NCBI GenBank assembly: GCA_021432655.1
Contig: MU271326.1
Span: forward strand, 1-64,000
Direction: 5' to 3'
DNA from: Atractiella rhizophila
Lineage: Eukaryota
Length of the DNA: 64,000 nucleotides
A program made the translations under genes and the position numbers. Under the pieces are notes generated by a model that was given only the letters and a program-made list of their open reading frames with translations, did not search any database and was not told the origin of the DNA. Shown here piece after piece: positions 37,080-59,636 of this stretch. How positions within the stretch are numbered: position 1 is the stretch's first letter; each line of letters opens with the position of its first letter.

Positions 37080-37340
37080 TCTCTATATCTATTCCCCATC
37101 AGTTCTTGGCATGAGTCATAAGCCGCACTTTTGAGCCCTCACCTCCCTTACCATGCACAATAGAATCAAATAAATTATACCATCATAACTATATGCTTGC
37201 CCCTTTCTGAAGCTGTAAGGAAATTTTATTCTGAACGGGATAAAAAAATGCGTTCATACTGGACTCGAACCCTTACATGAGTCACTGTAAGGTTCAATTC
37301 TGCCCCGTGCGAGCGGGTTAGCCGCCTGAGGAACAACTTG
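37080..37340 (+). mobile_element. Mini (non-autonomous) Helitron
   Basis: 5' TC, 3' CTTG followed by T; shares TCTTGGCATGAGTCATAA..CGCACTTTTGAGC with the copies at 45668 and 59636. Confidence 0.8.
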
Positions 37341-37513
37341 TATCCCTTTAAATTTGTTCCTAGCCACTCTTCCCTTTTGCTTCAGAGCTTCAGCGTCAAT
37401 ACTGCATCGATATTTTCGATTTCCTTGTACCACCAATCACTGCTTCCGCTCACCTGGCGAACACAACGAGCTTTGACCGTACCCCACCTTAAGACTGGTC
37501 AACACTAAAGAAT

Positions 37514-40091
37514 ATGGACACTCCAACTGCGCCGCCACCCGGAACGCAAATAACAAAAGTTCGGCCGATCAGCATGGAAGAAGGTACTGAACACAGACAC
37601 ATCACTCCACCTCCTACTTTTGTTGTCACTGCGCCATCCGAGGCTCCTTCCAACAAGCGGAAGGCAGATGATCCAGGCTTCACCCCGAACAAGCAAGTTG
37701 CAGTCTTTACCCCTGTAGCACGATATCAGCAGCTCACCAGTCGCATCGAGGCTGAATCTCCTCCTATCCTGGTCTCAGGTCTGCACCCAAAGGCGGCCAA
37801 GGGACGTTACCGCGGTCTGGCAGAAAAAGTGAAGTTTCAGAGGCAAGATTGGCAGAATGAACGCACGATCAAAGGCTTTATGCAGCGCCTTTACAAGGTA
37901 AGAATACTTGTCACATGTTGACATAATGAATGTGACGATATCTTCAGGAGCTTTTGCCGGATTCAGATCTTAGATATCATGTAGTGAACAGACCCCTGCA
38001 ATTCTGGGGCAACGTCACCCAAAGGGATTCCCTCAAAATGGACGGAATGGTGACTTCCATCAAATTCAAGCCGAGCCCCGTGTATTCCAGTGCAGTCTGT
38101 GGGGTGGAAGTCAAGACTGGGGAGAAGAGTCAAACCGTGCAGGGGAAAAGGCAACTGGGCCGTGGCGCTGTCTATCCGCTCGTGGCGAGACCTCGCCATT
38201 TTTTCTGGGGTCTCTTAGTCGATGGAGCTCTCGACAAGAAGAAGTACTGCTGGATCGTTAATGCCCATGGAGGCAGATGGCAATCCGATATGCAGGGGTT
38301 AGAAGAGAACTATCAGGAGTTTTTGGAAGGGTTGGCAACTCTCGTGGAAGGAGACGAAAAGGAGACTGGCTTCCTCGATATCTTCGATCACGACAGCAGC
38401 TTGGTTTTCAACTGGAACTTCGCGGCACTGTCCTCCCCAAGAGTCCCTGAGAGCATCCTCGACGGACCAGTCACCGCCATCACAACTAGGATTCAAACTA
38501 GATCTAGAAGGACGTTTGAAAGATTGTCAAGTTGTGGGGACCGGGTTCCGGTCCAACCTTGTTGCAGAGGGGTTATTCCAAAAGTGCTCGATCACGGGGA
38601 GCGGGACACAGGTCTGGGCGTGCAGGTTTGTAGAAGGGACGGGATACGGCATCATCAAGCATGTGTGGCTTGACAAAACTCTCCTCGCAAGGATGAAGGA
38701 CACCGTCGAGCATTTTATCGAGTGGAGACAGAAGCTCGAGGAAGGCTCCTTGGATTGTCAGAGACATTACTGGGAGTGGCTCGAACATGCTCCGCGTGTC
38801 CTGCTTTCATTTCCTGAGTTCTCAACGAGCAAGATATTCGAGAAATGCATGTCCTGGGACGAGAAGAAACAACCGGAGTTTGAGAAGAAGGAGCTAGTCC
38901 CTGTTCTAATATTCCACTCGACTATCGGCCTTCCGCTTGGGGCGGCAACCAACCTTGACGAGGTGCTCAACACATTCATTGGCCTTCTCAGACGTGAGTC
39001 CCCCGCTTTGTCTCGGTACCCGCATCATCTGATGAATTCCTACAGAGTTAGCGACTCTGAATGATCAAGACTTCGTCCATCGCGACGTCTCCTATACGAA
39101 TATTTTCATGCACAAATGGACACCAGAGCAAAAAGAAACCGGCACAACCATCGGTTGGTTAAACGATTTTGATTTCTCTATCAACAACTCTAAGCCAGGG
39201 GACACGGGCTTCGCTGCTGGTGAAAGTGGCCACGACCAAAACGACCATGTTGAGATATCCGTGAGTAATGTCTCAAGCCGCAGTATTTGTTAATGTTTGC
39301 CAAGGGGACGTTTATTTTCCTCTCTCGATGTGCCTTGCAGGCGGTCCTAGACTTCATGTACCCCCAGAGCAACGAGATGGGTGACGACGAGGTCAGCGAC
39401 GAAGGCACGGTCATGGACGACAACAAAGTGAAGGATCAGGATAATGTGGGAGATCATGCCAGTGACACCGAGGACGACACGGCGGAAAATAACAAATCCC
39501 CGGATGTGAAGCCTTCCTCGCAGCCTCCCAAGCTTGCCCGACCTCTGTACCGACAGAACATCATGGACGACGTGGAGTCTGTTCTTTTCTGCATGTTTTA
39601 CTTTTTCTGCCATTTCGTTCCTCAAAAGAGGGGACGAACCGGTCCGTTCCGCAAGCGAACTTGGCACAAGAGGGAGACGTCGATGGCGCAAGACTCCGGA
39701 AAGATCTACAGCAACAAGGACCCATCTTTCATCTTCGGTGTTGAACCTCTTCTTCAGGATGATCCCTATCCGCTTGCAGCTTGGGAGGAAGCCATCAATG
39801 TCGCCCTCGATGCAAAACTGATGCTTCTCTACGACGGGATGTCACAAGAAGATTTCAATAAGAAAGCCGCCGTGCTTTTAGGTGCCTACGACGAGGATTG
39901 GAATTGGAATAGAAAGAAGGTGCTAGCAGTACTCTGGGAAGTCTCTCAACCACTTTGGCTTAATCCCGCAGACATAGGCAAAGCGAATCCTTTTTCCCAC
40001 AGGAAGTGTTCCGAAGGTCGAGGTTTGGGACATGGTTAACAGAATGGTAAATGCGTTGCAACGGGGAAAGAAGAGTTTCAAGAAGAAATAG
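37514..40091 (+). CDS. Fungal-type protein kinase (FunK1/Pkinase_fungal) with N-terminal nuclease-like segment; frameshift near 38495 as assembled
   Basis: SITGSGTQVW, IIKHVW, FVHRDVSYTNI, IGWLNDFDFS, GTFIFLS, DDVESVLF; upstream KMDG...GVEVK; ~50 nt introns. 3' end approximate. Confidence 0.85.
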
Positions 40092-40272
40092 TGTCTGAAA
40101 TGTTGGTTGCAAATAGGACAGAAGATTTCAGTGCAGAACAACATGAGGGCACCTCAGGGTCATCGCTGTGCTCCCAAGGCACGATTTCATCGATGCTTAA
40201 CCCTTCGATACGTGATTGCCTTTCAGAGAATTCTAAGTTATTCCAGTCAGTTCTATCTTGGCCTTGTAGATA

Positions 40273-40764
40273 CAAGTCTGTTTGTACCCTCGTCCCTTGG
40301 CATCACCCCTCCCCCTCCCCCGCCCCACCAGAAGCTTTGCCCCTTAGACCCCAGCCTCTCACGGCCACTGTGTGGAGCTCTTGCCTCTGGTAGCCACTGC
40401 ATGGGGCCATGCCTTTGGTGAGCACAGACTCACCATATATGCATGGGTTTTGGTATGAATCTATATCATTTCATTGTAGGTGAGAGCAGATCGATGGTGA
40501 TCAACTGTGTATCATTACAGAGCCTAGCCGAAGGTTTGAGGTTTTATAATAGGTGGTAGCCTCAATGATATGGGAGAGCAGCTCAGTGATGATCAACTGT
40601 GTATCCTAAGGTAGATTCGTTCCTGTCGGGAGACAAATCGTCGAATAAGCTGATCATTTATCATGTCAACATCAACATTCCAGGCCATAAGGACCATGTG
40701 CTCTTGAAAATATTGCCTCAACTCGGCTGGGTTGACATCTTGTGTTGTGGTGCTCAGTCCAGGG
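40273..40764 (-). mobile_element. Helitron 3' terminal fragment (helicase remnant plus CTTG end)
   Basis: 40605-40760 is an inverted homologue of 55561-55715, and 40435-40475 of 56275-56320; ends CTTG|T. Truncated at a hAT-like TIR TAGGGATGCACAA at 40765. Confidence 0.85.
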
Positions 40765-41299
40765 TAGGGATGCACAATGGGGTGTGGCGTGGCATGTGTA
40801 GGGGGTTGTCAGGGCGGACACAAAGATGTGTGAATGAGACGTGTCAGGTCATGTACTGCAAGGACAATGCTAAGCGGAAATCCTGAGAGAACAAACTAGG
40901 TCTCTCAGAGGCATTGTTCTTGCCTATATACATAAAGGCTGCACAGCTACAAACAATAACTCTAACTCTATCTGAGGTGGGGCGCAAAGGTCATGTGATA
41001 TGTAGGGCAAAAGAGGTGGGGAAACAGAAACACAAATAAAGCAACACAAACATAGATCGAGCCCATGACTCTAAATAGACTAAAATAGGCGATCTTGTAC
41101 TGGACTCGAACCCTTGAAAGCAAGAAAATAGCCACCTCTGTCCTTGCAATTCCACTGCAGCAGCCCTGCAATGAACCAAATTCCGGCGCAGCAGCCATGC
41201 CCAGAATTGCCCTGCATACGATTTTTTTTTAGCACGGTTTGATCTTTTCTCTTTTCTCTTTTCTCAGGTTATGTATCAAAAGTTGGCTTTTGCCATTCA

Positions 41300-43790
41300 T
41301 GAAGGAAGGAAAGGACTAACATGTAAGTGAAATATAGCCTCTTACATGCTTCTAATGGCCAAGTAGGCTCATTATGCCCCATCCCAAGCAAAAAAAAGGG
41401 GCTGAGAAAGGAATTCGTGCCTGGCAGCAGAGGCGAGAAGATAGCCCGTTGATCCACCCCGGCGTTCAGAGAGGCATGCTGCAGGGTTACCTCAGCACTG
41501 TCAGCTTACAACAACCCATGCCTCCTCAACATTTGACGCATGAGATTCGTCAGCAGCAACAAGCATATGCCCTGCAGAGGTAATGCCGGCAACGTCACCA
41601 GCCAGACCCAGAACCATTGGACAGCAATGCAAATAGTGATTCATCTGATAAAGACCCTGAAGAAAATGACCTACACAATGCAAGTATGTACCACCACGGG
41701 ATGAGAGGCAAGACCATCATCCTTTCACTGCGTTCACCTATTCTCCACATACTGTTGAAGCTTTGAAACTTTCTGGCTGGAACACTGTCTTCTGCTCACA
41801 CGGTGGTGTATTTCGTTTGCTAGAGGAAAGGACGTCAGATAGCTCCAAACGAAGACCAGAATTTTCTTATTGCTGTCTCCATGGAAAGGTGGTCTGCCAG
41901 AGGTCCTGCCAGCTTTTGATGACCCTCCTCCAGAACTACTCCAGCTTCTTAATCCTGAAACATCAGAATCAAAACAGTTCTGCGAGACTATACGTTCCTA
42001 TACAATGCTCTTTCCTCTACTTCTCTTGGTGTCAAGCGACCTCCTATTCCAGGTCATGGAGTTTATTCTTTCCGGATCCAAGGAGAGCTTTGTCATCAAA
42101 TTGGGGCACTGCTACCAGGCTCTGATGGTGAGGAGAAATTTGCACAGATCTACATGCTCAATCCATCATACCAGATCCAGCAGAGGTTAGGAGTTGTTGG
42201 AGGAGTAAGTTACAGGAGAATATCCTTATATAAAAAAGCACGACGGGATTTGACCATGACTCACACATGTACTTTTGAGCACTTATATCACCGCCCACTA
42301 CAACCCTTTCAGAATTCTGAGTATACCACCGGAATACACGTGTCAGCGCCTTTTGAACTGTATACAGGCAAACACTATTTGAAACATAAAAAAGCATTGT
42401 TTTCACGACTGAGTCAGGTGACTTCACCCTGAGGGACGAAGAGGACGCTCAGCTAATATTAAAAAAACTTCAAGAGATGATCTGGCATGAAAATCCTGGC
42501 CACATATCTATCAAATTGCAAAGTAGCGAATGCAAGATGCTCCCACATTACAACTGTACCTTCAAACTATTGATCCAAGGCCAAGGACCCTCAGCAATAC
42601 AATAAGCCAACAGGCCATGGGATAGGAGAAATAGCGGTTCTACGCATTGAAGGGGAATCAGGAGCCTCAGCAGGGGTTACAAGAGACATTATAGTCAAAC
42701 TTAGGTGTCCTGATGCTCAGCGGAATTACGACAAAGTCAGCAATCACAATGCCAACTACCTTCCACTGTGTTTTCACTTTTGTTCCCTTATAGTGAGCAA
42801 GGATGGCATGCCTATATTCCCTTATGGGACAAAGATTTGCTTCACCCAGGACCACAGGAGGAATATCGAAACAATGATGGACAAATTGTTAGAAACATGG
42901 GAGAACAGGATCACGTTACTCAAATGAACTACTACTCTTACTTTCTCCATCTCAAAAAGAACACCTTCTCTCTCATTCATCATGGTGGCTGACTCTTTCA
43001 GGAATGTGTTTGTGATGCCTATCCACAAATTGAAAGTGGACGATTGAACTTCCTTTGATTCAATCAAGGATTACTCCGAACAGAGTCTTATGCAGGGCTT
43101 GGTGATGCCTTGGAGGATGGACGAGATCCTATAAATGTTGGTAGGCGAACTATTCTGCCCTCATCATACAGTGGCAGTCCTCAGCAGATGAATTAACAGT
43201 TTCAGGATGCAATGGTGATTGTTGGAAACCAAGGCTCTCCTGCTATCTTTACAACGTTTACCTGCAATCCTCACTGGCCAGAAATAACTGAAGCTTTACT
43301 GCCTGGACAAACCACTACGGACAGACCAGATTTGGTCTCTAGGGTCTTCAGTGTAAAGGTTAAAGACTATATGTGGGAGATCAAAGAGAAGGCAATCTTC
43401 GGGAGGACAGTCAGATTTGTTTGGGTAATTAAGTTTCAGAAATGCGGTCTGCCTCATGCTCATATTCTCATCACAAGATACCATTCGGGACGCTGAAGCT
43501 ATCGATCGTGCTGTATCCGCCGAACTACCAGACAAAGATGCTGACCCCGAGCTTTTCGATATTGTGTATCAGCATATGCTTCATGGACCATGTGGAGACA
43601 CTAATCCAGATAGTCCCTGCATGGTAGAGGATCTGAAAAGGCCAGGCAGAAAGATCTGTAGCAAAGGGTACCGCAAGCCATTTGCTGCAGAGACAGGCAT
43701 CAATGACAATGGATATCCAACTTATTGACGCTGTGATAATGGACGTACGTTTCAGAAAACACCAAATGGATTTATCTACGATAATCATTG
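41300..43790 (+). mobile_element. Degenerate Helitron Rep (HUH initiator) region
   Basis: CCLHGKV, FRIQGELCHQIG, FAQIY, ILPSSYSGSP, FTTFTCNPHWPEI, DRPDLVSRVF, FQKCGLPHAHIL, SAELPD, HMLHGPCG; many stops. 5' boundary approximate. Confidence 0.92.
42223..42456 (+). mobile_element. Diverged mini-Helitron nested in the Helitron Rep gene
   Basis: A|TC...CTAA|T with no TSD; removal restores KLQENILKKLQEMIW; diverged similarity to the 37080 and 59636 copies. Confidence 0.85.
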
Positions 43791-46582
43791 TCTTGATCAG
43801 GAACAGAATCACTCTCAAGAACAAGTGCGAAGCCATCATTGTCAATAAAGACAACCAAGAGGTAGAAGGCATCCTCTGCAAGTGGCGAGTGAGGAATCAT
43901 GAGCAGCAGCAGTTATTCAAGAGACTAAATGCAGTCACACAGCAACTGGTCATCACTCTCATACCAGCTTGGGTTCCTTCAAAAGAAAACAGTGGCAGAC
44001 CAATCCTCAAGAGGCTCCTTCTTCCACCTCAAATTCAAACTCTTTGTCCCAATATCCATTGCACATAAATCTTGCATTGAAATTGATTTGATCAAATCAA
44101 GCCTTTGAGGAGCTAATACAGGATTTTGTCCATTGAGGACATGGTGAAGTGAAGTACAGGCCAACTGAGGGAAGAAGAAGAAGAGAAAGAATGAAAGAGT
44201 GAGTTCATTTTCATTGATGATATGTATTTCAAGAAGACAGTGTTACATCCGGATTAATTAGATCAATTCATTGAGAGCAAGCACAACGTGTAGTCAAGGA
44301 ATCAGAGTTGGTCAGCGTTTAAACTGGTCTAAAAATGGGCAAACTGCTTGCCCATAAGTTGGCCAAAGACCACAAGGTCCAAACAGTTTTGCGCCTCTGT
44401 TTCGGCCAATGGTCAGCCAGAATTGACTCCAACCTACTCTGACCCAAGGGCACATGGGTCTGCTCGGTCAACTGGTCGACCAGTTTTTGCCCACAAGTTG
44501 GTAACCTGGTTGCCCCAGAGGTTTTATACGCCTTGATGAGCTTTCGGTCTTGAATAATCACAAACGGCCTTCCACTTTCCACAATCCACTCTGTTGTTGG
44601 GACTCAAAAAGCTGCTCAACTGAGAGCACGTAGAATATCTGAGCCATTCATCAAGCCACCATCCAAATTGTACTGATGTTCATGATTTCGAAGGTTCATT
44701 GAGGTCATATTGCTGATAGTACGTAGCAGATGTGGATTCCCCGGGGATCTATCCATATGAATTGAAACAGTGAACTATGAGACAAAGAATAGAGAGACTT
44801 TGAAAGACGTACTAGAGAGACTTTGAAAGACGTACTGCAGCAATGGTCTGCGATATATAGTTCCCCTCTTAACGTTTGCTTCTTCTTCCCCTTCTCATCC
44901 TTGTGATTTCTATCCTGAAATGTGTGTAAACTGGCTTTGTCTTCTTAGAGACCCCAAGTTCGCTTTCTACAGCTTAATACCTGGCACCATGAACAAATCA
45001 CACAAGTGGAAGAAAGACTCACGAAATGCCAGCTTGTCATCTGAAAGATCACTATTCAAAGCGAGGTCTGGATCATCATTCTTACTAACTGCCTTCTTTT
45101 TCTTGCAACAGGATGTGAAACTGAGGCTGGAGGCTCTGATGTAGACTGGGAACCGTCTGGTGTGTCGAATTCTAGGTATTATCCGTCTCACCCCTTATGT
45201 ATGACATTGTATAAAGAGAGTTCATCACTACTGGAGGCAGCTTTAGGGAGCACAACATGTTTATAGGTAAGAACAAGCTTACATGGTCCATTTTGCTGGA
45301 AACGCAAGAATCCTAAGCTGAATTATAGGTGGTAAGTCAAATAGTAAACAAGCTAATCTGCAAGTCAAACGAGCTGTAGTGATACTGAGAAAGAGACATG
45401 GATTGGTTGATAGGAGGCTTGCTGCAAGGATGTCGAAGCAGAGGTTTGGATATAGTGATGGAATAAGGCGGTATAACACGGCTAAGTGCGGTTGGCAAAG
45501 CTTCAGCTAGCAGCGGTGAGCTCGAAAATACTGGTTCTAAAACATGAGTTGCATAATATAAGATAACATAACATGGAGACAGGAGCGAAACAGAAGTAAG
45601 CATATCTAAAACACCCAAAGAGTTTACAAACGCTGAGAACAAGCAGTCTAGGCTGTTGGCACAGCCCTCCTATCCTCTAAGAGTCATCAGTTCTTGGCAT
45701 GAGTCATAAAACGCACTTTTGAGCCTTTACACCTCCCTCACCAGGCGCATTGAAATGAATTGAATCATACCATCTTATTGTAACTGCTTGCGCCTTTCTG
45801 AAGTTGCAAGGAAATTTTATTTTATTTTAAAGTCATGAAAAAAGTTGTGTCTTCTGGATTTGAAACAGTGAAGTTGAGAAGGAGATGTACAAAGCCAATA
45901 ATGCAGTGTGCAGCTATGAAGCAGCTACCGATTCCTGAGTAAGGAGTTTACTCTTTCTGGATTCAAGGGGAGCTGTGCCATCGCAGTGGAGCTTTGCTGC
46001 TTGATTCTGATGGAGACGAATTGTTCACACAAATCTACATGCTGGATTCTAAAGAGCAGATTCGACAAAGAGTAGAGACTGTTGGACAGCACAAACTCAA
46101 GGAAGGACTTTGAGGAAGTTGCAAGAAGTGATTTGGCAGGTCAATCCCTAGCCAGAAATTTATAAAACAGCAAGAGAGCACATGGAAGATAATCCGACTT
46201 TGAATCTCCACCTTTGAACTATTGATCCTACTGATCGGGACCTCGATGATACAATAGGCAACAGATCATGGCGCAGGAGAAATTGTAGTGCTTCTTGTAG
46301 GCAAACAGTCAGGAGCTATGGCAGGTATCACAAGGGACATCGTGGTTAAACTTCGACATCCTGATGGTCAGAATTTCTTTGAAAAAGCTAGTGATCAGAA
46401 GGCTCCTCTACACTTCCCACTTTTATTCCTCTACGGCGAGCAAGGTTGCCCCCCAGTTGTGGAGATCTGCTTCAAATGGTCCATGAGGGAATATCGACCA
46501 TATAGTATCTGCCGAATTGCCTGACAAGGATACCTACCTGAATTGTTTGAGATTGTCCGCAATCATATGCTTCATGAACCCT

Positions 46583-46889
46583 TGTCAGGATTCACTTATG
46601 GAGCATGACTCACATTCTGGAATATGTGGCAAATGGTCTAGAAGGTTCTACCAGGCATGTGGCAAATAGGAGGGTTAACAGTGGAATATGCTGGAACATT
46701 CTGAAACTTGTGTCTATCTGTGCATAAATACCTCAGCCAATGGAGTAAGATATCCAGACTGGTCCTCTTAGGATATCCACTCTACTTGGCAGGTTAGTAT
46801 CTCTCTTGTATCGTTGTAATAATACTTAGGATATCCACTTTACTTGGCAGGCCCCTACTCGATAGCCTTGCAGAGTGTCAACCCTAACA
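46583..46889. mobile_element. 307-bp solo LTR in the Helitron
   Basis: TGTCAGG...CCTAACA ends; TSD ACCCT/GCCCT; removal restores HEPYGDSNP (compare HGPCGDTNP in the other Helitron). Confidence 0.8.
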
Positions 46890-47160
46890 GCCCTATGGAG
46901 ATAGCAACCCAGATGCTCCCTGCATGATAGATGATCCTAAAAATCCTGGAAGAAAGATCTGTGGCAAAGGGTTTCAGAAGCCATTCATGGAAAAAACAGG
47001 CATCAACAAGGATGGCTATCCCACATACAGTTGCCATAACAATGGATAAACCTTTCAGAAATCTTTCAGAAATCAAGCATTGGATTTATTTATGACAATT
47101 GTTGGGTCATACCGTTTAATGGTTATGGCCTTCGGCTGTTTACCTGTTTACAGCTCATAT

Positions 47161-47325
47161 TGATGATTCCAAGGGTCTAAAGGAATACATTACAATGAAG
47201 TTATAATGGGCTTTTTATACCTTGAGGAACTTGGCAAAATGAGAGAAACAGCAAAGGGGAAAGAAAACTAGAGCCACAAATGACAGTGGCACGAATGCAG
47301 CTTAAAACGGTGCCAAACTCTGACA
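47161..47325. mobile_element. 165-bp solo LTR in the Helitron
   Basis: TG...CA ends, TSD CATAT; removal restores LFTAHINVE. Confidence 0.88.
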
Positions 47326-47480
47326 CATATCAATGTGGAACTCTGCATCTCCATCAAATCAGTCAAATACCTCTTCAAATACATCTACAAAGAAAATATG
47401 ATTAGGCACAAGCTGGTCTCCGTAGCACCAGAGGTGATGTTAGGTGGTGGATGAGAATTCAAGAGTACTTAGATGCTAGA

Positions 47481-47746
47481 TGTGAGAGAGGGACATACCA
47501 CATGACTCCGTTTTACTTCGTCGTTTTCCTTCCCTTCCCTCGTTTCTCTCGCTTCGTTCATGTTCCTTCCCTTCCCTCGTTTCTCTCGCTTCGTTCATGT
47601 TCCTTCCCTTCCCTCGTTTCTCTCACTTCGTTTCCCTCTCTCTCTCTTGTTCCCCACTCGTCGGCACGTGTACATAGGGTTAGGGCCATCGCCAACCTGA
47701 TTCCCCAGCGTTTCCACCATCTCATTTCGCTGGGGATCAGCTCACA
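47481..47746 (+). mobile_element. Extra solo LTR (266 bp) of the adjacent copia element
   Basis: TGTGAG...CTCACA, preceded by CTAGA; near-identical to the LTRs at 47837 and 54273. Confidence 0.95.
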
Positions 47747-48065
47747 CTAAAATATGATTAGGCACAAGCTGGTCTCCGTAGCACCAGAGGTGATGTTAGG
47801 TGGTGGATGAGAATTCAAGAGTACTTAGATGCTAGATGTGAGAGAGGGACATACCACATGACTCTGTTTTACTTCGTCGTTTTCCTTCCCTTCCCTCGTT
47901 TCTCTCGCTTCGTTCATGTTCCTTCCCTTCCCTCGTTTCTCTCACTTCGTTTCCCTCTCTCTCTCTTGTTCTCCACTCGTCGGCACGTGTACATAGGGTT
48001 AGGGCCATCGCCAACCTGATTCCCCAGCGTTTCCACCATCTCATTTCGCTGGGGATCAGCTCACA

Positions 48066-48079
48066 TGGTAGCGAGAGCC
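48066..48079 (+). promoter_or_regulatory. Primer-binding site (tRNA 3' complement, probably initiator Met)
   Basis: TGGTAGCG... directly after the 5' LTR. Confidence 0.75.
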
Positions 48080-48400
48080 ATCTAGTAGCTATAATACCCA
48101 CGCGTGTCCAGTTTTGGGTTTAACGCCGCCCATTACAAATTTTTGTAACAACAAATCTGACCTTGTCAACATCATATGTCTTGATACCTCACACCTTCTG
48201 ACGATAGAGACTCACCGCCACATATTCCTTCTTGACCTCTGTCTCCAACACCATCGCATACTACCGAACCTTTAATTAAATCCTCTCCTCCGATTTCTTT
48301 CCATAGCGCCGACATGGAGCTTTCTTCCACCTCCCCAGGGTTGATCATCGATGGAGTACCATCTATCGTACACGTGGGATTCAAGAGCTGGTGGAGGCGA

Positions 48401-51400
48401 TGAAATTGGGCTTGCAAGTGAGAATGGTTTACCATTATGCTCTGGATGTCGCTTCTGAGGGGGAATTCTGTCGGTCTAAACCGGTTCGTAACGATTTTCA
48501 AAATCAGTCGCAATGGGAGAATGCTATGGAGAAATGGGAAGCTGGAAATGCGAGAGCGGTGGCCATACTCCTTGCCAATCTATATGTGATGGCGGCGAAT
48601 CAACTTTCTGAACAGGACTGCCGGGTCGCCAGTGCGATCGTTGCGAAGATGCGTACCCTTTTTAGTACCACGCAGGCAGTCATGGGTCATACCATTTTTG
48701 CACGATTAGTCAATTTTCATCAAGGGGGATCTGGATCTGGATCAATGGCGCAATTCATAACCGACTGGAATGCGATTTACACCGAATTGGTTTCTGCCGA
48801 TGCGTCTTATGCACTTTCCAATGCGGTCAAGTTCCTCATTTTCGTCAATCTCCTCGAACAGGAATGGAGAAAATTTGCCTTGAACCCAAAGAATGTAACT
48901 CGAAACGATATCACCGACCTCTTCGAAAAATTGAAGGCAGAAGACATGACGAACACCGTCATCGAAAATGGGGACACAGGGATGAACCCGCGTTATCAAA
49001 GGGAAATGAGTGTTTACGCCGTATCGACTTCATACTCCCGATCTGTGCCCCTGCCCCCGTCGTCCCAACCTCCGATGGGATCCTATACTCCTATGCCTCA
49101 ATGGTCCCCTTCTCCTTCGCGAACATTTCAAACAGCTGACTCCTTGCCGCGATATCGTTCAACTAACCCTTACCGTACGGCCTCGTCAAATTCCCCTGCG
49201 CCTCATGCCACCACGCCTCATTTTCAATCTTCTAGCCTTAAGACCACTCAACGCCAATATCAGCATTGGTCAGTCCACCCCCCTACACTACAGCAACTCG
49301 GAAAGGAGTACCGTTGTACACGCCGCGTTTATGGCAGGCCTGGCACAAGGGTTTTTGGCAGACGGGCATGGGATTATGACGGACTGGAATTATGGCCGGG
49401 TTCAATAGCGCCTTCGGGACATTTCGTAGTTTTTGGCAGACGGGCATGGGATTATGACGGACTGGAATTATGGCCAGGTTCAATAGCGCCTTCGGGACAT
49501 TTCGTTGTACACCCGAAACAATGCGTCTACTGTCTTGGGATGGGGCATATCTCTTCCGGTTGCCACGTCCCTGCTGGCCAACGGGATACTGCCCGCGATG
49601 CTGCTTTCGCATCCATGGGTATCACTCTTTGTCCAAGTCCTCCAGGACGACCGAATTATGTCCATCCATCTGTACTGATTGCCAGCCCTGTTTTCTCGAC
49701 GAGCGATGAGCTCAATGATACCGGTATCCCACGAAGCGGCAACGACGTATTTAGCCCTGGCCTGGACGGTCGATACGATGGCAATTTGGATGGCAATGTG
49801 ATTTATTCCGGTGACTTAGCATACTGGCCTTCCTACGTTCAAGCGGCTTATGAACAACATCGTTGGCCCGTACCTCAACCTGCGCGAGATCCTGACCTCA
49901 AGATCCACCCACTATTCATCCCTCAATACACGTACGACAACCCACTTCCTTCCTCCGAATCGCATTTTCATACCCACGTTCAATATGCTCCTGATGGTGA
50001 CATGGCTTTTGAAGACGTGCTACAGGAGATCTCAGACTCGGAGTACCTGGCTTGTGTGGAGGAACACGAAGCGACCTCGAAGAAGCCCCCTCCCTCGCCA
50101 ATCAATCTTCCCTCCTTGTTTCACCTCATGCTTTTGTTTCTTTGGTTCAAAATGAAAATTTGTTTCCTTCTGTTTCTAACGATGCTCCGAATGCCTTGTC
50201 CTTTTCTTCTTGGATTCAAAATTGCTTGCCATTTGCTTTATCTAGTTATCTTAACTTTGAAGTACCTCAGCCTTTGTTTCGTCTTCTGGACTCCCCTGCT
50301 TCTATTGCCGAACGGTTCTTACCCGTCGACTACGTGGCGAACGTTGCTGCTCTCCACTCCTCCACATTTTCCGACCTTGATTCGAAAACTCACTCATTCC
50401 CTTTTACAAGCTACGATGCCGTCATACCTTCTACGGCTTTCCACTTCCTCGCGCGTGAACACCCAGATATCCCTTCCATATCTGTGGATTGCTACGTCGA
50501 CTTGGCTGCAACAGTTCACATGTCAGGCTCCACCGAACTGTTCGATGACCTCCGGCCGATATTACCTCCTGTCTTCGTTGGTGGCGCGTTTGGGAGTGGC
50601 GGATTCGCGACCCATATGGGCAGAGTTCGACCACTTCTCGAGGATCAAAGCGGGCTCTCGATTTCCCAAGCGGACCTTGGCACCGGTCTCTACGTCCCTG
50701 GACTCGGTGTCACTCTGGTATCTCATTTCGACCTCATGCGCCGTGGGAACCGATTTACCAACGACCGCCAACACCTCTTCTTTCGTCATGAAGATGGTAG
50801 ACACTTTGGTATGGCAAAGTTGGGCCAGCCAGTCGCAGATAGAACTCCAGGCGAGATCCCCCTCCCTACCTATCCAAATAGCAAACATAGCTCACTCAAG
50901 CCCGTCTGCTTTTGCAGTTACGAATTCCAAAACGTGGCATTCACGTTTAGGTCACATTGGTGCAAAACGCTGGCGGGAGCTATGTACGGGAGATTGGGTT
51001 ACAGGATTCGATTGTAATCAAACCACGTTTGAATCCTGTACTATCTGCGCAGCTGGGAAATCGAAAGCACATCCGAATCGAAGGACCACAACAACATCTT
51101 CGTTCACGAAAGGTGAACGGATTGATTGTGACTTGTGGGGGGTCCCGCGCCAGTATCTGTATTGCAGAGTGGCTACCGTTATGTACTCGGAATCGTAGAA
51201 GAGTCCACTGCCATGATATGGTGGATTCCCCTACGACTCAAGTCAGATGCCGCCATGGCTCTGAGAATGTGGATCACAGAGACAGAACGTCGTCACGGCG
51301 TTAAGGTGAAGATCCTGCGAAGCGATAACGGCGGGGAGTTCAAGTCAGTCATTTTCAAATCTTTCATACAGAAATCAGGTATCACTCACGAGACTTCAAT

Positions 51401-54015
51401 TCCATACGTTCACAACCAAATGGGGTTTATGGAACGACGTTGGTATACGATATTCCATGTAGCTCGCACAATTCTATTGGAATCTGGTTTGCCTTTATCT
51501 TTCTGGGAGAAAGCAGTTCAGTTTGCTGTTCACACTTTAAATCATCTACCCACTTTTTCGCATGGATCTTGGAAATGTCCTTTGAAATTATGCATAGGCA
51601 TAGCCCCTGATGTTTCTTCTCTTTGTACTTTTGGCTGCTTAGCTATTGTTCACATTCCAAAGGAGAGGCAGATATCGAAACTCCATCCGAGAGGGGCGCG
51701 AGGATACTTCGTAGGATATCTGCCTGGCACGAAGGGTTGGCACTTTTGGGTACCGTCGCAAAAGCGATTTGTGGAAGCGAAGGATGTCAGATGGTTCGAA
51801 GATCAGTTTTATCGGGATCGGAGTGAGGAGGATCCAGAACGCCTAAGTGACTGGACTCTCGACGAATTCATGCCCTCTGAGTTTCATAGCTTAGCTGACG
51901 AGGTTCCCGTTAACATTCCAGGTCCCGACGAAGTAGTGCCGCCCACCATGCCATCCAATAACCCTTCCGTACAACTTCCTCCTTCCGAACCCACCACCAT
52001 GTCTCCAGCTACCTCAGATATTCATATTCGGACGGAGTTAGATAACGTTGAGGGGGGGTTGCCGAGTCCTACCGCAAGCGAAGAAGCTGTGCAGGCACAA
52101 ATGGTCCCTGTTAGACAGGTACGCAAGCGTATACCACAACACTCACCTGCCCCATATCCACCCACAAACCAACGTCCACGACGTGATATATCGCGAGTCG
52201 ATTATACTGCCCAGCTGAAGGGTAAGCCATCAAACCAAAAAGGGAGGACCCATACACATTCCAATTACTTTCTTGATGCACACTTCCGATCCACTGACCA
52301 AGATTTCATTCCTTCACTAGCAAGCAGAAAGATGGCGTCTGCCGTACGCTCATCTTTACAATCATCAATCTCAGGTGAAGGCGAGGACGTAAGACGCTGG
52401 AGGTGTTTGCGGCTAATGTGAAATGGACAGGTAGTCTACACGAACCGTCTTTCAAACAAGCGCTCGCTGGGCCTGACACTGAGAAATGGTGGGAGGCGAT
52501 CTTGGCGGAGATAGTGGCGTTGAGAAATATGGGAACATGGGATGAGGAACCTGTTCCACTGCCCTCTGGCAAGAAAGCAGTGGGTTGCAAATGGATCTTG
52601 CTGATAAAGAGGGATCTAGATGGAAGCGTTATCAAGTACAAGGCACGACTCGTTGCTCGGGGTGACACAGAGACTGAGGGAGTAGATTTCGAAGACACCT
52701 TCGCTCCTACCGTGCGTATAGTATCTATTCGCACTATTCTTTCTCTCACAGCGTCCAGACGCATGAAGCTAGGACAATTCGACGTCAGCAATGCGTTCTT
52801 GAATGGAATACTGGGTGAGGAAGTATATCTTAGTCAGCCTCAAGGGTTTGTCGACCCGCAACGGCCTGCTCACGTTTACAGATTGCGAAAGACCTTATGT
52901 TGCCGACGGCAGGCAGGCAAGGGATGGAACGATACCGCCCACGCGTTCTTTATTGACCAAGGATTTACACATTTGGATGCAGACCATGGGGTATATTTTA
53001 AAAATGATGGAGAGGGACTGGCTATTGTAGCTATCCGCGTTGATGACGGTCTTGTCGCGGCGTCCACTCACACACTCATCGAGAAGCTTATTGAGAAGCT
53101 GTATACTGCACTTTGCTCGCGATTCAAAATAACGACGTCGCCGGTTGGAAATTTCCTAGGCATGAATATAACATGGGATGAAGAGAGAAGTATTATTACC
53201 TTGGACCAGGAAGCTTATGGGCACAGATGCATTGAAAAGTATGGGTTGCAGGATATGAAACCGACTAAGATGCCATGCAACATCGACGATCGGGTAACAG
53301 AGTCTTGGGTTGCCCAGACTGATGGGGAAAGGGAGTATATGAAAAGGATTCCTTACAGGGAAGCTGTGGGAGCACTGATCTATGCTGCAGTAAACACTCG
53401 ACCAGACATTCCATTCGCTGTGAACAGGGCAGCGCAATACAACGCCAATCCTGGGCGTCGCCACTGGACAATGGTTCAAAGGATGTTCAGATACCTTTTA
53501 GGCACACTGGATTTCAAACTCATTTGGGACGCAACGGGTAGCACAACCCTTGAAGGTTTTTCTGACTCTGACCATGCTGCTGACTTGGATACTAGAGGCT
53601 CGATATCTGGCGTGTGTTTCACCTGGGACGCTCAGCAATATCATGGATATCCAAGATGCAACCGACAGTCGCGATATCCTCAACTGAGGCCAAGTACATC
53701 GCACTCTCGACAGCGGCAAGGGAGGCGATGTGGCTACGGGCGCTGTTATCACAGCTTGGTTTTCCTCAACAGAATGTGACACTGATCAGGGGAGACAACC
53801 AGGGATCCCTACTTCTGGCAAAACATCCGTGTAACCATGGTAGGACGAAGCACGCCGATGTGCATTACCACTTTACGAGGGAAAAGGTAGCGTCTGGGGA
53901 GATCGTACTCGAATGGATCCCTACACAAGATATGGTAGCTGATGTGCTGACGAAGGGCCTGGGATACCTACAGCACTCTAAATTGTGCTCCGCTATGGGG
54001 CTGTTGTCTAGTTAG
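48401..54015 (+). pseudogene. copia gag-pol polyprotein with several frameshifts
   Basis: CVYCLGMGHISSGC; YVDLAATVHM (protease); WHSRLGH..CTIC; RSDNGGEF; YKARLVARG, FDVSNAFL, RVDD in place of YVDD; GFSDSDHA, KHADVHYH. Confidence 0.93.
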
Positions 54016-56772
54016 ATGCGTGATTGCAGTGTTTGACTCAGGTTTCCACTCTATTCTCAGAACTTCGAGATTCTGCTACTTCCAGTTTCTAGGCTATTAT
54101 AAATTTCATTCTAACTTTTACTCATTTCTATTAATCCTCTCCAATAATCTAGGACAATCCTGATATCGCATTTGTATGTTTGGGCACATTAATTTGTTCT
54201 TGTCTTTTTCCGTTCTTTTGCCTTTTCTACTGTTGCTCATTTTGTGTGCCCCACGCCTTGAGTGAGGGGGGGTGTGAGAGAGGGACATACCACATGACTC
54301 CGTTTTACTTCGTCGTTTTCCTTCCCTCTCTCTCTCTTGTTCTCCACTCGTCGGCACGTGTACATAGGGTTAGGGCCATCGCCAACCTGATTCCCCAGCG
54401 TTTCCACCATCTCATTTCGCTGGGGATCAGCTCACACTAGATTCATCGGATCTTCTGAAGGTAAGTGTTCAGAACTACTCCTGAGATGATGTTAGGGCTT
54501 ATTTGATGCAATTTTACAGCCTGTTATCGGATTTTCCACTTTATTTTATACCAGCATTTCCTGTGGCTATTCGCTTGGCAGTACACCTCCCTGATCAGCA
54601 TTCTGTGACCTCTAATCCTCAAGATGAGTCCCTTGGTGGCATTTTTGGCAGGAACAACCTTGCCAAACCAATGTTGATGGAGTTCTTCATGTACTGTCAG
54701 GAAAAACCCTGACATTAGTGAAGACCTTACCTATTCTAAGGCTCCTCAATTCCTTACCTGGAAGTCAGGCTCATGCTCTTGGAAATCTGGGAGAGACAAG
54801 AAGATATCGGCCGTATCTACTATGTTGCGCTGTCATAAGGGAGTTATTCCATCTGCGAATGCTTCTGCATCAGGTCGCCAGTCCGAAATCTTTTGAGGAT
54901 ATCCGAATAGTAGAGGGAACTGTCTATGAGACTTTCAAGGCTACATGTATGGCTCTTGGGCTGTTAGAAAGTGACGAAGAATGGGATTATTGTCTCAATG
55001 AAGCCAACACAGTCAAGAATGGCTTTGCAATGTGATCTCTGTTTGCCTACATCCTGCTATTCGGTGTCGTCAGCAGGCCCAGAAGATTGTGAGACAGCCA
55101 TCATGAGCAACTCAGTGACGATTGTAAACACATTCTATAGACAAAATATGTGTAGACAATCCAACAAACGAGCAAATTATCAGCCTCTGTCCTCTCAAAA
55201 TTGAAGATCTCCTCCAAGCTCATGGTAAATCTCTAAGTGACTTTGGACTACTACAACTAGCAGAGCAACTAGATAGATGGGGAGGTGAGACAAGGATTAT
55301 TGGAGAAAAACTTGCATATGATCGACCACTACTTCAGGACGTATTCAGACAGTGTTACCGTTATTGAATCTGGACCAATGTCATGCCTGTGACAAAGTTG
55401 TAGAAGCTTGGCAAAGTGGAAATGGTGGATTATTTTTTATCGATGGGCCACGAGGGACTGGAAAGACTTTTGTTAAAAACCTACTACTGCCAGGGTGTGT
55501 TCAGTGGGAAAAATTGCACTGACAGTAGCCTCTTCAGGTATTGCTGCTATTCTGCTGGAAGGACTGAGCACCATAATGTAAGATGTCAACCCAGTTGTGT
55601 TTGAGGCAATACTTTTAAGAGCACATGGTCCTTACGGCCTGGAATGTTGATGTTGACATGATAAATGATCAGCTTATTCGACAATTTGTCTTCCGACAGG
55701 AACGAATCTACCTTAGTGCTGACAGATTGGTGGACGACAGCAACAATACTCAACAAGGATTTATGCCTGAGTACCTCAACACTCTCAACATGCGGGACTT
55801 CCTCTCCGTCAGCTTTATCTCAAAGTCGGAGCCCCTAACACCCTATTACGAACCTCAATCCTTCGGCTTGGCTCTGTAATGGTACATGGTTGATCATCAC
55901 TAGCTACTCTCTTGCATTTTCAAGGGTACAATCATTATGGGAGTATTTGTGGATACCTCAGTCCTTATCTCACCACTGCTTTGGATAGCAAGGTCTCTAA
56001 TTCATTTCCTTTCACCTTATGCCGGTTGCAATTCCCCATCAAGTTGGCTTTCTGTGTTACCACCAACAAGTCACAGGGCCAGTCGGTGGAGACTGTTGGA
56101 TTTGGACACACCTGTTTTTGTGCAAGGACAACTTTATGGAGGACTTTCTAGAGTTTCAAACGCTAAGAATCTTCGAGTTTATTTACACCAAGTACAAGGG
56201 ATAGAGAATAAGAGAGCCGAAAATATAGTGTATAGACAAGTTTTGAATTTTCAAGATTGGATGCATGTAGATACACAGTGAAATCATATAGATTTATACC
56301 AAAACCCATGTACATATGTTGAGTTGGTGATGCCCAAGAGACAAAGGCACCGACACACTTGTCCTGCACTCCGAGTCGGCTACATCACAATCGAGAGAGC
56401 GGTTGTTTACAAGGTGGACATCATCATTAGCCTGACAGAATCAACGGGCTCTGTTCATTGCGTTTTAGTCACAGAGACCTGAAAGACTGTTTTGTTGGAT
56501 GTGTTGGTCAACGTTACATAGTATTCTTTTAGCTGATCCGCTTCACCGACCTTTGAGATACGAAAAGAGTGATATAGAAGAAACAAGCTTCAGGCTGTAG
56601 ACTGCTCCGTCTTCCGTTTCATAGGACGTGCTGCCATTGAGAAGTGAAAGGATCCTCATATTCCACATTAGGGGCCCGTCAGGGTAGTGCATAGATGGGA
56701 AGCTTAGATGATCGTGTAGATCTTGCAGCCTATCGCATTATTGTAAATTTTGCTTTTAGTTCTGGTTACATT

Positions 56773-59340
56773 CTAATCTTCATCCCAGTTCGGGTTCTGT
56801 TTTGGTGCCTTCAATCCAGCGGGCCTGAAAGAATGCTTTAGTCCACGTTTAGAATTAAGGGGAAAGAATTACTTGGACATGATTATACCGTCCACTCGGA
56901 GAATTGACGTTGCTGCGTCAACGGCGAGCCTCATGCCCCACTTTGTTCCGACGAGGAGATCATATATTCCAGCCTTCTTCGTATCTAGCATGCCGTCGCC
57001 GTCGCCCTTCTAACCGTTAGCAAAGATCTAGCCGTTATGATAAATACAGACCTCAACATCTACCCCAATCGCTTCCCCTCCCGCTTGCTGATGCCGTGCA
57101 TACAAGCGGCCCATCACCTCAAAACCCTCAGCTCCTCCACCGCCAGCGTTCTCCACCAGAGTCCTAGGTACCACTTCTAATGCATCCGCAAAGAGCTTGA
57201 TGGCATGTTGTTTCATCCCTGCGGCCTTCTCTCCAAACTCTGCAATCCTCTTGCTCAATTCCAGCTCCGTTGCTCCTGCACCGGGCACCAGTCTTGAGTC
57301 CCGAAGCATGGCCTTAACGACATTCAGGGAAGAACCAATGGATCGATCAAGAGCATCGAGATAGGAAGTTGTATTTCCTCGAAGGAGGATGGTAGAGGTT
57401 CGAGAGTCTGAACCCTCTTCTTGCCGGAACACAGTCACGCGATCCCCACCGATCTCGATCGCCTCAACAACTGATACGTAGCCCATTTCTTCTGCCGAAG
57501 GAGCACCGAGTCGGGCGATAGGAGTAGCGCCGACCACTCGGCATAAACGTTGGAGATCGAGTTTGGAAGGTATGCGGAGGAGGAGGATAGAGTATTTAGA
57601 AAGGTAATGGAGCGCAAGGTCGCCCACTGTTGAACCTGCAACAAGCACTTTCATCCCGGAATCGGCCAACTCTTTGATAGTCTAGACAACCGCATCAATG
57701 ACCGCCAATATGAAGAAAGGCGACAAACCTTCTCTAATTGCTCCTCCTCACCCTTGCTGAAGCCCAAAAGCTCCTCCGAGTTCTTCAGCAAAACGGTTCC
57801 TTTCGTCTCCGTCGTAGCAATGTCAACTCCGCTGGTGAAGACTCCGACTGTGGCGTTGGTCACACCCTTAACGCTGCCTATGACCGTCATCAAATCCACC
57901 TTACCACAATAGCCGCAGACTTACCTTCAGGTTCACGAGGGAACACCATTCCCTTGAGCACCTTCGACTGAGACAATGAGCCTCCCATAATCTTCACAAC
58001 GCGAATTGAGTCAGGTGTAAACTTTGTGAGATCTTTGGGCTGTGAGAAGTGTTAACTACAAGTAGGAATAAAGAAGATGGACGCACGAGAACCTGCAGAA
58101 CGGATTCTGCAACAAGTGAACTGACAAAATCTTCGTTGCCATAATGTTTGCTTCCCAGGACGGTCCTCAGGAGGGTGGTAATACTTTCCGTTGTGGGGGG
58201 AATTGGTAACGTCTGAACGGCCAGGGCTATCGTTTCTTGTCAGTCGACACCTGTTCTGAGGACATGAAGGACGCACAATCGAGCTCTTGAAGACACTTTT
58301 GACTGGCAACCTCCCATCCTTCAACGATTTCTGAAGGGTGCAGACCCATCAACAGAAGAGACTCTGACTTCTTCAGCAGCTCGCCGCAGAGCATAAGCAC
58401 CAGGTTGGATCGATCGCCGATCTGCACAAACACAGTCATTGTCAGCGCGTGAATATCGTCTGGGGCTTCATGTGTAGGCGAAGGGATTTGATCACAGAAC
58501 TAGAAAGAGAAATGAAGAAATGGACACTCTCGCTCTTTGTACGGCAGATCACGAATGGTGGGCTCTGGTTCTCAATTTCGCAGCATTTTCATGCTGAGTT
58601 AAGCTTAAGCCAGACTTCGTGGCTCTCGAACGAACGCATGTTGAACGGGAACAGCGGTGAGCAAAAAATATTGGCATTTTGACCGTCGTGAGCTGACGAC
58701 GCTGAATGCAATGGTACTTTACAGAAGGCCTGACATGAGACAGGAAGGCTGAAGAAACGCGCCAGCTCCAGCAACAAGAGCACAAAGTACACCTGTCAAT
58801 ATCGACCGGATGATACCATTTATCTTGCTTCTGAGCCGCGGTAAACGTTTTGACAACCAAAAGGACACTTCAAAATCATGTCTATCTTGATACGAAAGGC
58901 AAAGTAGATCGTGCAGGAAGGCAGCTGGTCAAACCAGACATATATTTACGCGCGTCTTTATCTCAAATAACGGGAGGGCTAACTCATATTATTTAAACGG
59001 AAATTTCCAAAAGGAAGTCTTCATTTCCCATCCTCTCAAGAGCAGAAAGACGTACCTCTTGGCTCATCGCCTCCACGTTGCTAGTGGCCATCTTTGCGGC
59101 GGGATGTACGACTTCGAGTTCCCTCAAAATGGTGGACCCCTCATTGGTGACGAAAGTGCGATCGAGGTGGTTAATCACAATCTTGTTCCTCCCTTGTGGC
59201 CCATAACACGTCCGAACAATCTCTGCCAGTTGCGACAGCGCCTGGATGTTACGGATGATCGACTCTTCGAGACCGGAGGAGAAGGTATAGCCTTCCTTAA
59301 AGAGTGGAAGGCCTGTCTTGGATGGGAGCTTGAGTGACAT
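56773..59340 (-). CDS. CCT8: T-complex protein 1 subunit theta (CCT/TRiC), multi-exon
   Basis: GLEESIIRNI, YGPQGRNKIVINHL, ELEVVHPAAK, TTETKGTVLLKN, PSKLDLQRLCRVVGATP, IEIGGDRVTVFRQ, LVPGAGATE, C-terminal NPNWDED. Confidence 0.96.
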
Positions 59341-59359
59341 AACTGCTGATTCATTATGA

Positions 59360-59636
59360 CAAGTGTGTCATCGGCCTTCGTCCCTCAGGCCCCCAACCCA
59401 CTCGCAAGGGGCACGGCCCCTTGCACCCTACTGTGACTGTTGTGAGGGTTCGAGTCCAGTATGAAACGCATTTGTTTACCCCCTTCAGAACAAAATTTCC
59501 TCGCGGCTTCAGAAAGGCGCAAGCATATGCAGTAAGGTAATTCATTTTGTTTCAATATGCCTGCTGAGGGAGACATGAACGCTCAAAAGTGCGTTTTATG
59601 ACTCATGCCAAGACGGATGGCTTTTAGAGGTAAGGA
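59360..59636 (-). mobile_element. Mini-Helitron (277 bp) ending 19 bp upstream of the CCT8 start codon
   Basis: On the minus strand A|TCCTTACCTC...GACACACTTG|T, with GC-rich hairpins GCAAGGGGC-CGT-GCCCCTTGC and GGCCT..AGGCC; last 10 nt identical to the Helitron end at 56361. Confidence 0.88.

Follow-up and report, generated by a model that had tools for sequence, protein, structure and literature searches.

Helitrons are already known to spread sites for RNA polymerase II (Pol II) factors, and ISX of Drosophila is reportedly one of them. Here we analysed a 64,000-nt stretch of the fungus Atractiella rhizophila (contig MU271326.1, forward strand; "the window", to which all coordinates refer) that carries miniature Helitrons, or minis, containing an antisense B-box of the RNA polymerase III (Pol III) type; this mini-Helitron family is real, and its unusual, lineage-constrained B-box has a putative function. 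Among basidiomycetes, HELPO2 and the non-autonomous helpo1.3 Helitrons of Pleurotus ostreatus likewise insert at AT, start with TC, have a RepHel parent and make no target-site duplication (TSD), and HELPO2 also shares the CTTG 3' end; a subterminal hairpin is a further trait of these elements (PMC4289320). The HELPO elements measure 1.5-13.7 kb, compared with 250-300 bp for the Atractiella minis, and that paper's main text nowhere mentions tRNA. Transposons that carry a host protein-binding motif across a genome are exemplified by the Caenorhabditis Helitrons bearing heat-shock elements (PMC6927752) and by ISX (PMC4384637), for which binding and effects on host genes were demonstrated; the Atractiella minis, in contrast, bear a putative binding site, a Pol III-type B-box, and their copies decay neutrally. 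In yeast, lone B-boxes with neither a tRNA gene nor an A box are described as extra TFIIIC (ETC) and chromosome-organizing clamp (COC) sites, which makes them the nearest likeness to our boxes as candidate TFIIIC sites (PMC3395662). ETC sites occupy 8 conserved host loci, have a 10-base 3' extension and show proven occupancy, whereas the Atractiella B-boxes are transposon-borne and unconserved after insertion. Helenus terminal-repeat retrotransposons in miniature (TRIMp3; PMC10886601) are also non-autonomous basidiomycete elements with a conserved box B, and their conservation is centred on promoter motifs and not on tRNA structure. They are, however, long terminal repeat (LTR) retroelements that move through an RNA intermediate and have an A box as well as a B box, while the minis are rolling-circle DNA elements with box B only, in reverse orientation. 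Finally, fungal U6 promoters can have a TFIIIC B block outside the mature RNA that works with an upstream TATA box; the B blocks described in that review lie downstream (S. cerevisiae) or in an intron (S. pombe), unlike the reversed upstream box that we found at Atractiella U4, U5 and U6 genes (PMC5855946). In the literature searched, judged by titles and abstract openings, there was no report of a Helitron with a Pol III B-box, and a search mostly without subscription papers and without the key survey found none of a reversed upstream box at fungal small nuclear RNA (snRNA) genes.

The minis are a real Helitron family of 250-300 bp and about 100 copies, inserted between A and T as TC...CTTG, with no TSD. 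In the 51.5-Mb, 1998-contig genome, to which all genome-wide counts refer, a 24-nt 5' anchor, with 2 mismatches allowed, had 175 matches compared with 1 for its control, the 3' hairpin motif 103 compared with 1, and the exact 11-mer GGTTCGAGTCC 126 compared with 35 for the reversed control. We classified 110 copies as 69 minis, 21 long copies, 13 copies without the middle block and 7 others; the long ones comprised 6 of type C and 15 labelled type B, one of which is in truth the window's type D copy. Full-length minis began with TC in 62/64 cases and ended with CTTG in 61/64, with A before the element in 53/64 and T after it in 62/64; the flanks shared 0 nt in 54/64 and at most 4 nt in the others. 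TC and CTTG were among the criteria for full length, so these end counts describe intact copies only. The preliminary description of the window had recognized TC starts and CTTG or CTAA ends followed by T at 37080-37340 (+), 42223-42456 (+) and 59360-59636 (-), and their ends, target, lack of TSD and RepHel parents bear out that they are Helitrons. Its further point that excision of the 42223 unit restores the host frame also held, since K-L-Q-E-N-I-L-K-K-L-Q-E-M-I-W is regained between A and T without a TSD and equals the uninterrupted homologue L213. On their 3' side, the minis have a strong CAAGGGGC-CAT-GCCCCTTG hairpin about 45 nt from the end; closer to it, about 10 nt ahead of CTTG, there is no more than a weak GGCC stem. 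The 3' flanks of 69 family ends were A-rich at +9 to +12 and G-poor at +6 to +8, and TAWA occurred within +4 to +17 at 25/69 ends, compared with a control rate of 6.6%. This target preference beyond the A and T could bias insertion towards TATA-like sites. As separate observations, TATAWA was present in the same interval at 5/69 ends (control, 0.5%), tandem and nested copies of family A and its sister family Z were common, and several copies (L013, L020, L025, L079 and L187) are preceded by short (TATCC)n arrays in which the element's 5' terminus is repeated head to tail.

Comparison with long copies showed that the minis arose by internal deletion from RepHel Helitrons of 5.3-5.6 kb, of which they retain ~190 bp at the 5' side and ~80 bp at the 3' side, because both the 5' module and the 3' end are held in common with the long RepHel copies. 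Long Helitrons of this size are present at L213, L214 and L222. L213 encodes Helitron_like_N (PF14214, E 5.7e-59) and PIF1 (PF05970, E 2.6e-50) domains and terminates, on the 3' side, in sequence homologous to the 3' end of the minis; the RepHel partner thus has both ends in common with them, and the reading frames seen in it are interrupted. As the preliminary description stated, the minis are also related to the large Helitron that starts at 45668, whose 5' end can be aligned with them up to about 45866. Minis and long copies share their first ~190 bp, and bodies B, C and D split off directly after GGACTCGAACC, so that the mini, B, C and D types all part immediately 3' of the B-box motif. 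The B-box was therefore inherited by the minis from full-size parents, as the final one of the conserved blocks in the 5' module. In the minis, the end of this module pairs with the start of the 3' end as an inverted repeat, GAACCCT...AGGGTTC, which may have favoured the internal deletion. We also considered whether the motif might be the start of the RepHel coding sequence (ATG CGT TTT GTA...) and rejected this because most type B copies have a stop after 9 codons in that frame and the RepHel ATG (MPRPKQKK) sits ~280 bp downstream. A DNA pattern search of metagenome contigs for relatives elsewhere gave 0 matches, and a RepHel search gave 2 loci, of which the one read (L242) was 36% identical and had none of the termini and no GTTCRANNC match.

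The motif fits the B-box consensus, as proposed, and does so strongly. Exactly three matches to GGTTCGAGTCC occur in the window (37261, 41102 and 59447; 0.02 expected), and with a matrix from 28 host tRNA genes they are its best-scoring B-boxes, with a score of 18.0, host tRNAs ranging from 11.3 to 18.9. The generic core GTTCRANNC, in contrast, is not enriched (21 in the window compared with 18.2 expected); the consensus itself, GWTCRANNC, is taken from PMC5499648. The core is kept in 92/113 sampled copies, which together with the genome-wide excess of the exact 11-mer substantiates the dispersal of a strong B-box by this family. Not all related units in the window carry one: the 42223 copy belongs to the distant sister family Z and has TGAGTCA at the aligned position (42410-42416), and at the 45668 Helitron the site reads GTTTCAAATCC, with a broken core. 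The motif at 41102 is not part of a mini but of the remnant of a long RepHel Helitron, in which a truncated solo LTR has taken the place of the first ~175 bp.

To compare the motif with its surroundings we used 113 of 120 copies found by the 5' anchor, 7 non-collinear ones having been dropped before the motif was examined. The 11-mer exceeds its flanks in mean identity (94.5% compared with 78% and 84% for two upstream 11-mers), but several blocks of the module are alike conserved; away from the anchor, it ranks 10th of 153 scored segments. Changes were counted on a tree built without the motif, with branches of at least 3 copies taken as deep. On deep branches the motif had 0.27 changes per site compared with 0.94 in the module, and the three deep changes (52 G>C, 57 G>A and 59 G>A) all keep GTTCRANNC. 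At the tips it had 4.18 changes per site compared with 3.61, including 10 independent C56T and 7 G57A changes; C56 is a critical B-box position. With the deep rate below that of the module and the tip rate at background, the motif is constrained in replicating lineages and decays neutrally after insertion. Decay at the background rate, which the preliminary description had named among the findings that would refute its proposal, is thus present at the tips and absent from deep branches.

A similar box stands upstream of host snRNA genes, in reverse. We found reversed GTTCRANNC at -58 in 3/4 full U6 copies, which represent two independent upstream regions, and in U4, and at -63 in U5. Each of these boxes is followed after about 19-22 nt by a TATA-like box near -30, and the U4 box is the exact 11-mer GGTTCGAGTCC, while the U4, U5 and U6 upstream regions are otherwise dissimilar in sequence. 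Because the position of the box is fixed in four independent upstream regions, these results argue for a real promoter element in this fungus. They further suggest that U4 and U5 may be Pol III- or TFIIIC-dependent, with an unusual layout for a fungal promoter. The Helitron box has the same strand sense towards RepHel and CCT8 as the snRNA boxes have towards their genes; if TFIIIC binds it, it is therefore the sense strand of the element that matters and not an antisense tRNA-like transcript. The reversed boxes bear on Pol III promoter evolution and on the design of single guide RNA promoters in Pucciniomycotina. The U2 copies, for their part, have CCAAAA(C/G)TTGTTC in common at about -40.

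We favour, with a probability of roughly 0.45, the reading that the motif is a putative TFIIIC-type control site used by the parent Helitron. In the parent it would act as a host-factor site, most likely for TFIIIC, aimed at the RepHel gene as the reversed B-boxes are at U4, U5 and U6, and would probably keep the 5' end open for transcription or RepHel loading. The B-box may derive by a few substitutions from TGA(C/G)TCA, the site of family Z at the same position, with no need for tRNA capture, and the minis would scatter it as a passenger, as potential lone, ETC-like B-box sites and not as Pol III genes. Overall the motif looks useful to the Helitron itself rather than like a captured piece of tRNA. 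If TFIIIC does bind, this would be a rolling-circle DNA transposon exploiting the Pol III machinery, and ~100 natural copies with and without C56T would offer a ready test of a lone B-box on chromatin and neighbouring genes in a basidiomycete; if it does not, this is an ordinary mini-Helitron family. Several results weigh against a TFIIIC site. The motif is only one of several conserved blocks (rank 27/187), as few deep changes are seen in 19/183 segments, and with just three of them, one at a CpG, the statement that all were tolerated is thin. The reversed upstream box is missing from U2 (0/4 copies, one partly masked) and from one U6 copy, no TATA at the snRNA-box spacing is present in the mini, B, C and D sequences, family Z is mobile without having a B-box, and no outgroup was found to polarise the change between B-box and TGACTCA. 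The RNA evidence, moreover, consists of contigs of four runs, which show no strand, start or level. A second reading, which we place on the unlikely side, is that the block serves RepHel itself, or a bZIP-type factor, as a Helitron cis-site, that it is the homologue of the TGA(C/G)TCA in family Z, and that it resembles a B-box by accident. Family Z is collinear with family A (z 6.3-8.4), the positional homology between GGACTCGA of family A and TGACTCAA of family Z is gapless, with TGA(C/G)TCA in register with GGACTCGA, and in both families the bodies part just after this site. The first TGA(C/G)TCA also lies at +33 to +35 in 15/15 aligned representatives, other module blocks are conserved equally or better, and generic B-box cores are expected ~18 times per 64 kb by chance. 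An accidental likeness sits less well with the state that was reached, a top-scoring B-box identical to the one upstream of U4, and with lineage-level changes confined to degenerate B-box positions.

The preliminary description had instead proposed that a Helitron captured a tRNA 3' half. In its most specific form, an ancestral large Helitron would have taken up the 3' third of a tRNA (T-arm, acceptor strand and terminator), probably tRNA-Arg(ACG), in antisense, of which all but the B-box has since decayed; we consider this decidedly unlikely, although TFIIIC-type use by the parent and an old tRNA-Arg capture are not fully exclusive. Rfam gave 63 host tRNA matches, of which our loci cover 51, and the 33 rows used yielded 27 distinct 3' tails, an incomplete set in which intron-bearing tRNAs may be missed. 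The best of these tails was tRNA-Arg(ACG) (L031) for 23/25 of the commonest variants, with 16-20/25 matching. With the 11-mer held fixed, however, p ranged over the 6 commonest variants from 0.004 for the best, through 0.02-0.03 for three others and 0.10 for the commonest, to 0.70, uncorrected for the 6 tried. The tRNA-like spacing was confirmed, both in the 37080 copy, where 12 nt and then T7 follow the motif, and in the family, where the T-run follows after 12-14 nt in 106/111 copies, as in host tRNA genes. A run of at least 7 T is not typical (28/111), and the terminator-like run of at least 5 T is present in 103/111 copies, yet is common to the B-box-less family Z. T-arm pairing did not hold: 5/5 pairs form in 1/111 copies and 3/5 in 67/111, compared with 5/5 in 27/27 host tails. 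The three minis scored for an A box had -4.8 to 1.5 compared with 8.7-15.6 for host tRNAs, which speaks against the proposed Pol III transcripts in the tRNA direction; long types B and C have marginal A-box-like words (8.0-8.6 bits; p 0.05-0.09 in five copies, 0.26 in L213). ARAGORN found 0 tRNA genes in the window or in L072 and L089, and Rfam had 0 matches at E<=5 in 36000-60500, matched U4 only on four loci and gave one chance match on L221. On these blanks we rejected the idea that the element contains a complete tRNA or a member of another Rfam family, low-stringency ARAGORN calls being inconsistent, on both strands and taken as noise. Family Z provides the strongest argument against capture. 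It shares with family A the TGTTTT stretch and the A-run, including that of the 37080 copy, so a capture would have to predate the split of the two families. Because it has the T-run and flanks in register without a B-box, no capture junction is visible, and the capture story appears largely unnecessary. Least probable of all, to the point that we give it little weight, is that the dispersed minis are selected host elements, serving either as chromatin boundaries or as units of Pol III transcription. In yeast, TFIIIC binds lone B-boxes, and these can have boundary activity (PMC3395662); the copy number and the retention of the core would agree with such a role, but the tip changes, C56T and G57A among them, accumulate at the background rate and the minis lack an A box. 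Individual B-box loci are accordingly not conserved, as judged by tip-level decay within this genome, and the suggested selection on dispersed copies finds no support there. One mini does adjoin an expressed CCT8 paralogue, and one spliced CCT8 contig (X11 record 14) extends to 59375 and so overlaps the mini by 16 nt; this overlap falls below the 31-letter bridging threshold and is a weak hint that the CCT8 5' untranslated region includes Helitron sequence. To return to the TFIIIC-type site, its most far-reaching version would have the Helitron turn its own terminal site into the fungus's reversed B-box promoter element and so recruit TFIIIC to serve its own expression or replication, with ~100 minis seeding TFIIIC sites and one supplying the start region of the CCT8 paralogue; we regard this whole chain as unlikely.

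Table 1. Features of the window and, in the last row, snRNA loci elsewhere in the genome (slashes mark insertion junctions).
Feature	Position	Strand	Remarks
Mini-Helitron, family A	37080-37340	+	T/TC...CTTG/T; diverged copy with shortened 3' end
TGAGTCA palindrome	37112-37118	+	First conserved block of 5' module
T7 run (A7 on +)	37242-37248	-	12 nt 3' of B-box in tRNA orientation
B-box GGTTCGAGTCC	37261-37271	-	Last block of common 5' module
Inverted repeat GAACCCTTAC...GTAAGGTTC	37267-37295	+	Joins 5' module to 3' end; mini-specific; DNA fold
Spliced gene after 37080 mini	37514-40039	+	Same orientation as mini
Truncated solo LTR	40807-41095	+	Dispersed family; fused to Helitron 6-7 nt before B-box
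Decayed long RepHel Helitron, type B	41095-43790	+	5' module lost up to B-box
B-box GGTTCGAGTCC of type B long Helitron	41102-41112	-	
Mini-Helitron, sister family Z	42223-42456	+	A/TC...CTAA/T; no TSD
Large decayed RepHel Helitron, type D 5' end	45668-56361	+	TC...CACTTG/T; split by Copia
Homologous motif GTTTCAAATCC	45856-45866	-	Type D lineage state GGTTCAAATCC; G53 lost here
Copia LTR retrotransposon within large Helitron	47481-54436	+	TSD CTAGA; rve, RVT_2 domains
CCT8 (TCP-1 theta) paralogue	56776-59340	-	Intact, spliced
Mini-Helitron, family A	59360-59636	-	A/TC...CTTG/T; in sense with CCT8
B-box GGTTCGAGTCC	59447-59457	+	Next T-run interrupted (TTTGTTT)
Reversed B-box + TATA-like box: U6 (L238, L239, L241), U4 (L151), U5 (L237)	58-63 nt upstream		T-run after each gene

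Two of the minis stand close to genes (table 1). The 59360-59636 copy ends 19 nt before the CCT8 ATG (59340). The CCT8 protein matches Atractiella rhizophila at 96% and Rhodotorula and rusts at about 60%, and its gene has a first intron of 634 nt, the others being about 47 nt. A second CCT8 copy (L246, G000:C4) is 86% identical in nucleotides in exon 1, with mostly silent changes, and its upstream region is unrelated. Spliced RNA contigs of the window's CCT8 were present in 4/4 runs, which come from root metagenomes, runs with small shares having been left out; contigs matching the element in X10 and X2 derive from other copies. The fungus itself, by its CCT8 protein an Atractiella-like member of the Pucciniomycotina, presumably has a root-endophyte lifestyle. 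From the end of the 37080 mini to the in-sense ATG at 37514 there are 173 bp, and the gene that starts there is, we assume from its motifs, of a probable fungal kinase type, for which Pfam gave no such match on three fragments. The palindrome at 37112-37118 we take to be of AP-1/Gcn4 type.

We also noted a number of smaller features. The type C long element at L221 has, in the antisense of its 5' region, tandem GGCCAAGTGG words that resemble the A box of tRNA-Arg and lie 50-65 nt upstream of the B-box; T5 follows the B-box, the score is marginal and there is no Rfam tRNA hit. A patatin coding origin of the motif was considered, as in L147/L175 (the same loci as L208/L193) it encodes G-F-E-S in the frame of an adjoining patatin fragment, and rejected, those loci being chimeras; the motif is absent from 17 patatin paralogue loci, and homology begins just past it. 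Patatin-like phospholipase genes are a very large family here, with 125 genome-wide matches (L194-L212) and some frames of >1000 aa. Three independent truncation or fusion points lie no more than ~7 nt 5' of the motif (window 41095, L179 and L147/L175), and the zone around it is possibly a breakage or recombination hotspot, although the numbers are small. The 41095-43790 Helitron is 84-91% identical to L213, L214 and L229, and 'TCTTG' at 41095, considered as a second Helitron 5' end, turned out to be the LTR junction. Inverted pieces from the 3' region of a Helitron helicase are found at 40415-40760 (-), immediately upstream of the solo LTR, and correspond to 55561-56337. At the Copia element, a 356-bp block made up of the 5' LTR and adjoining sequence is present in duplicate.

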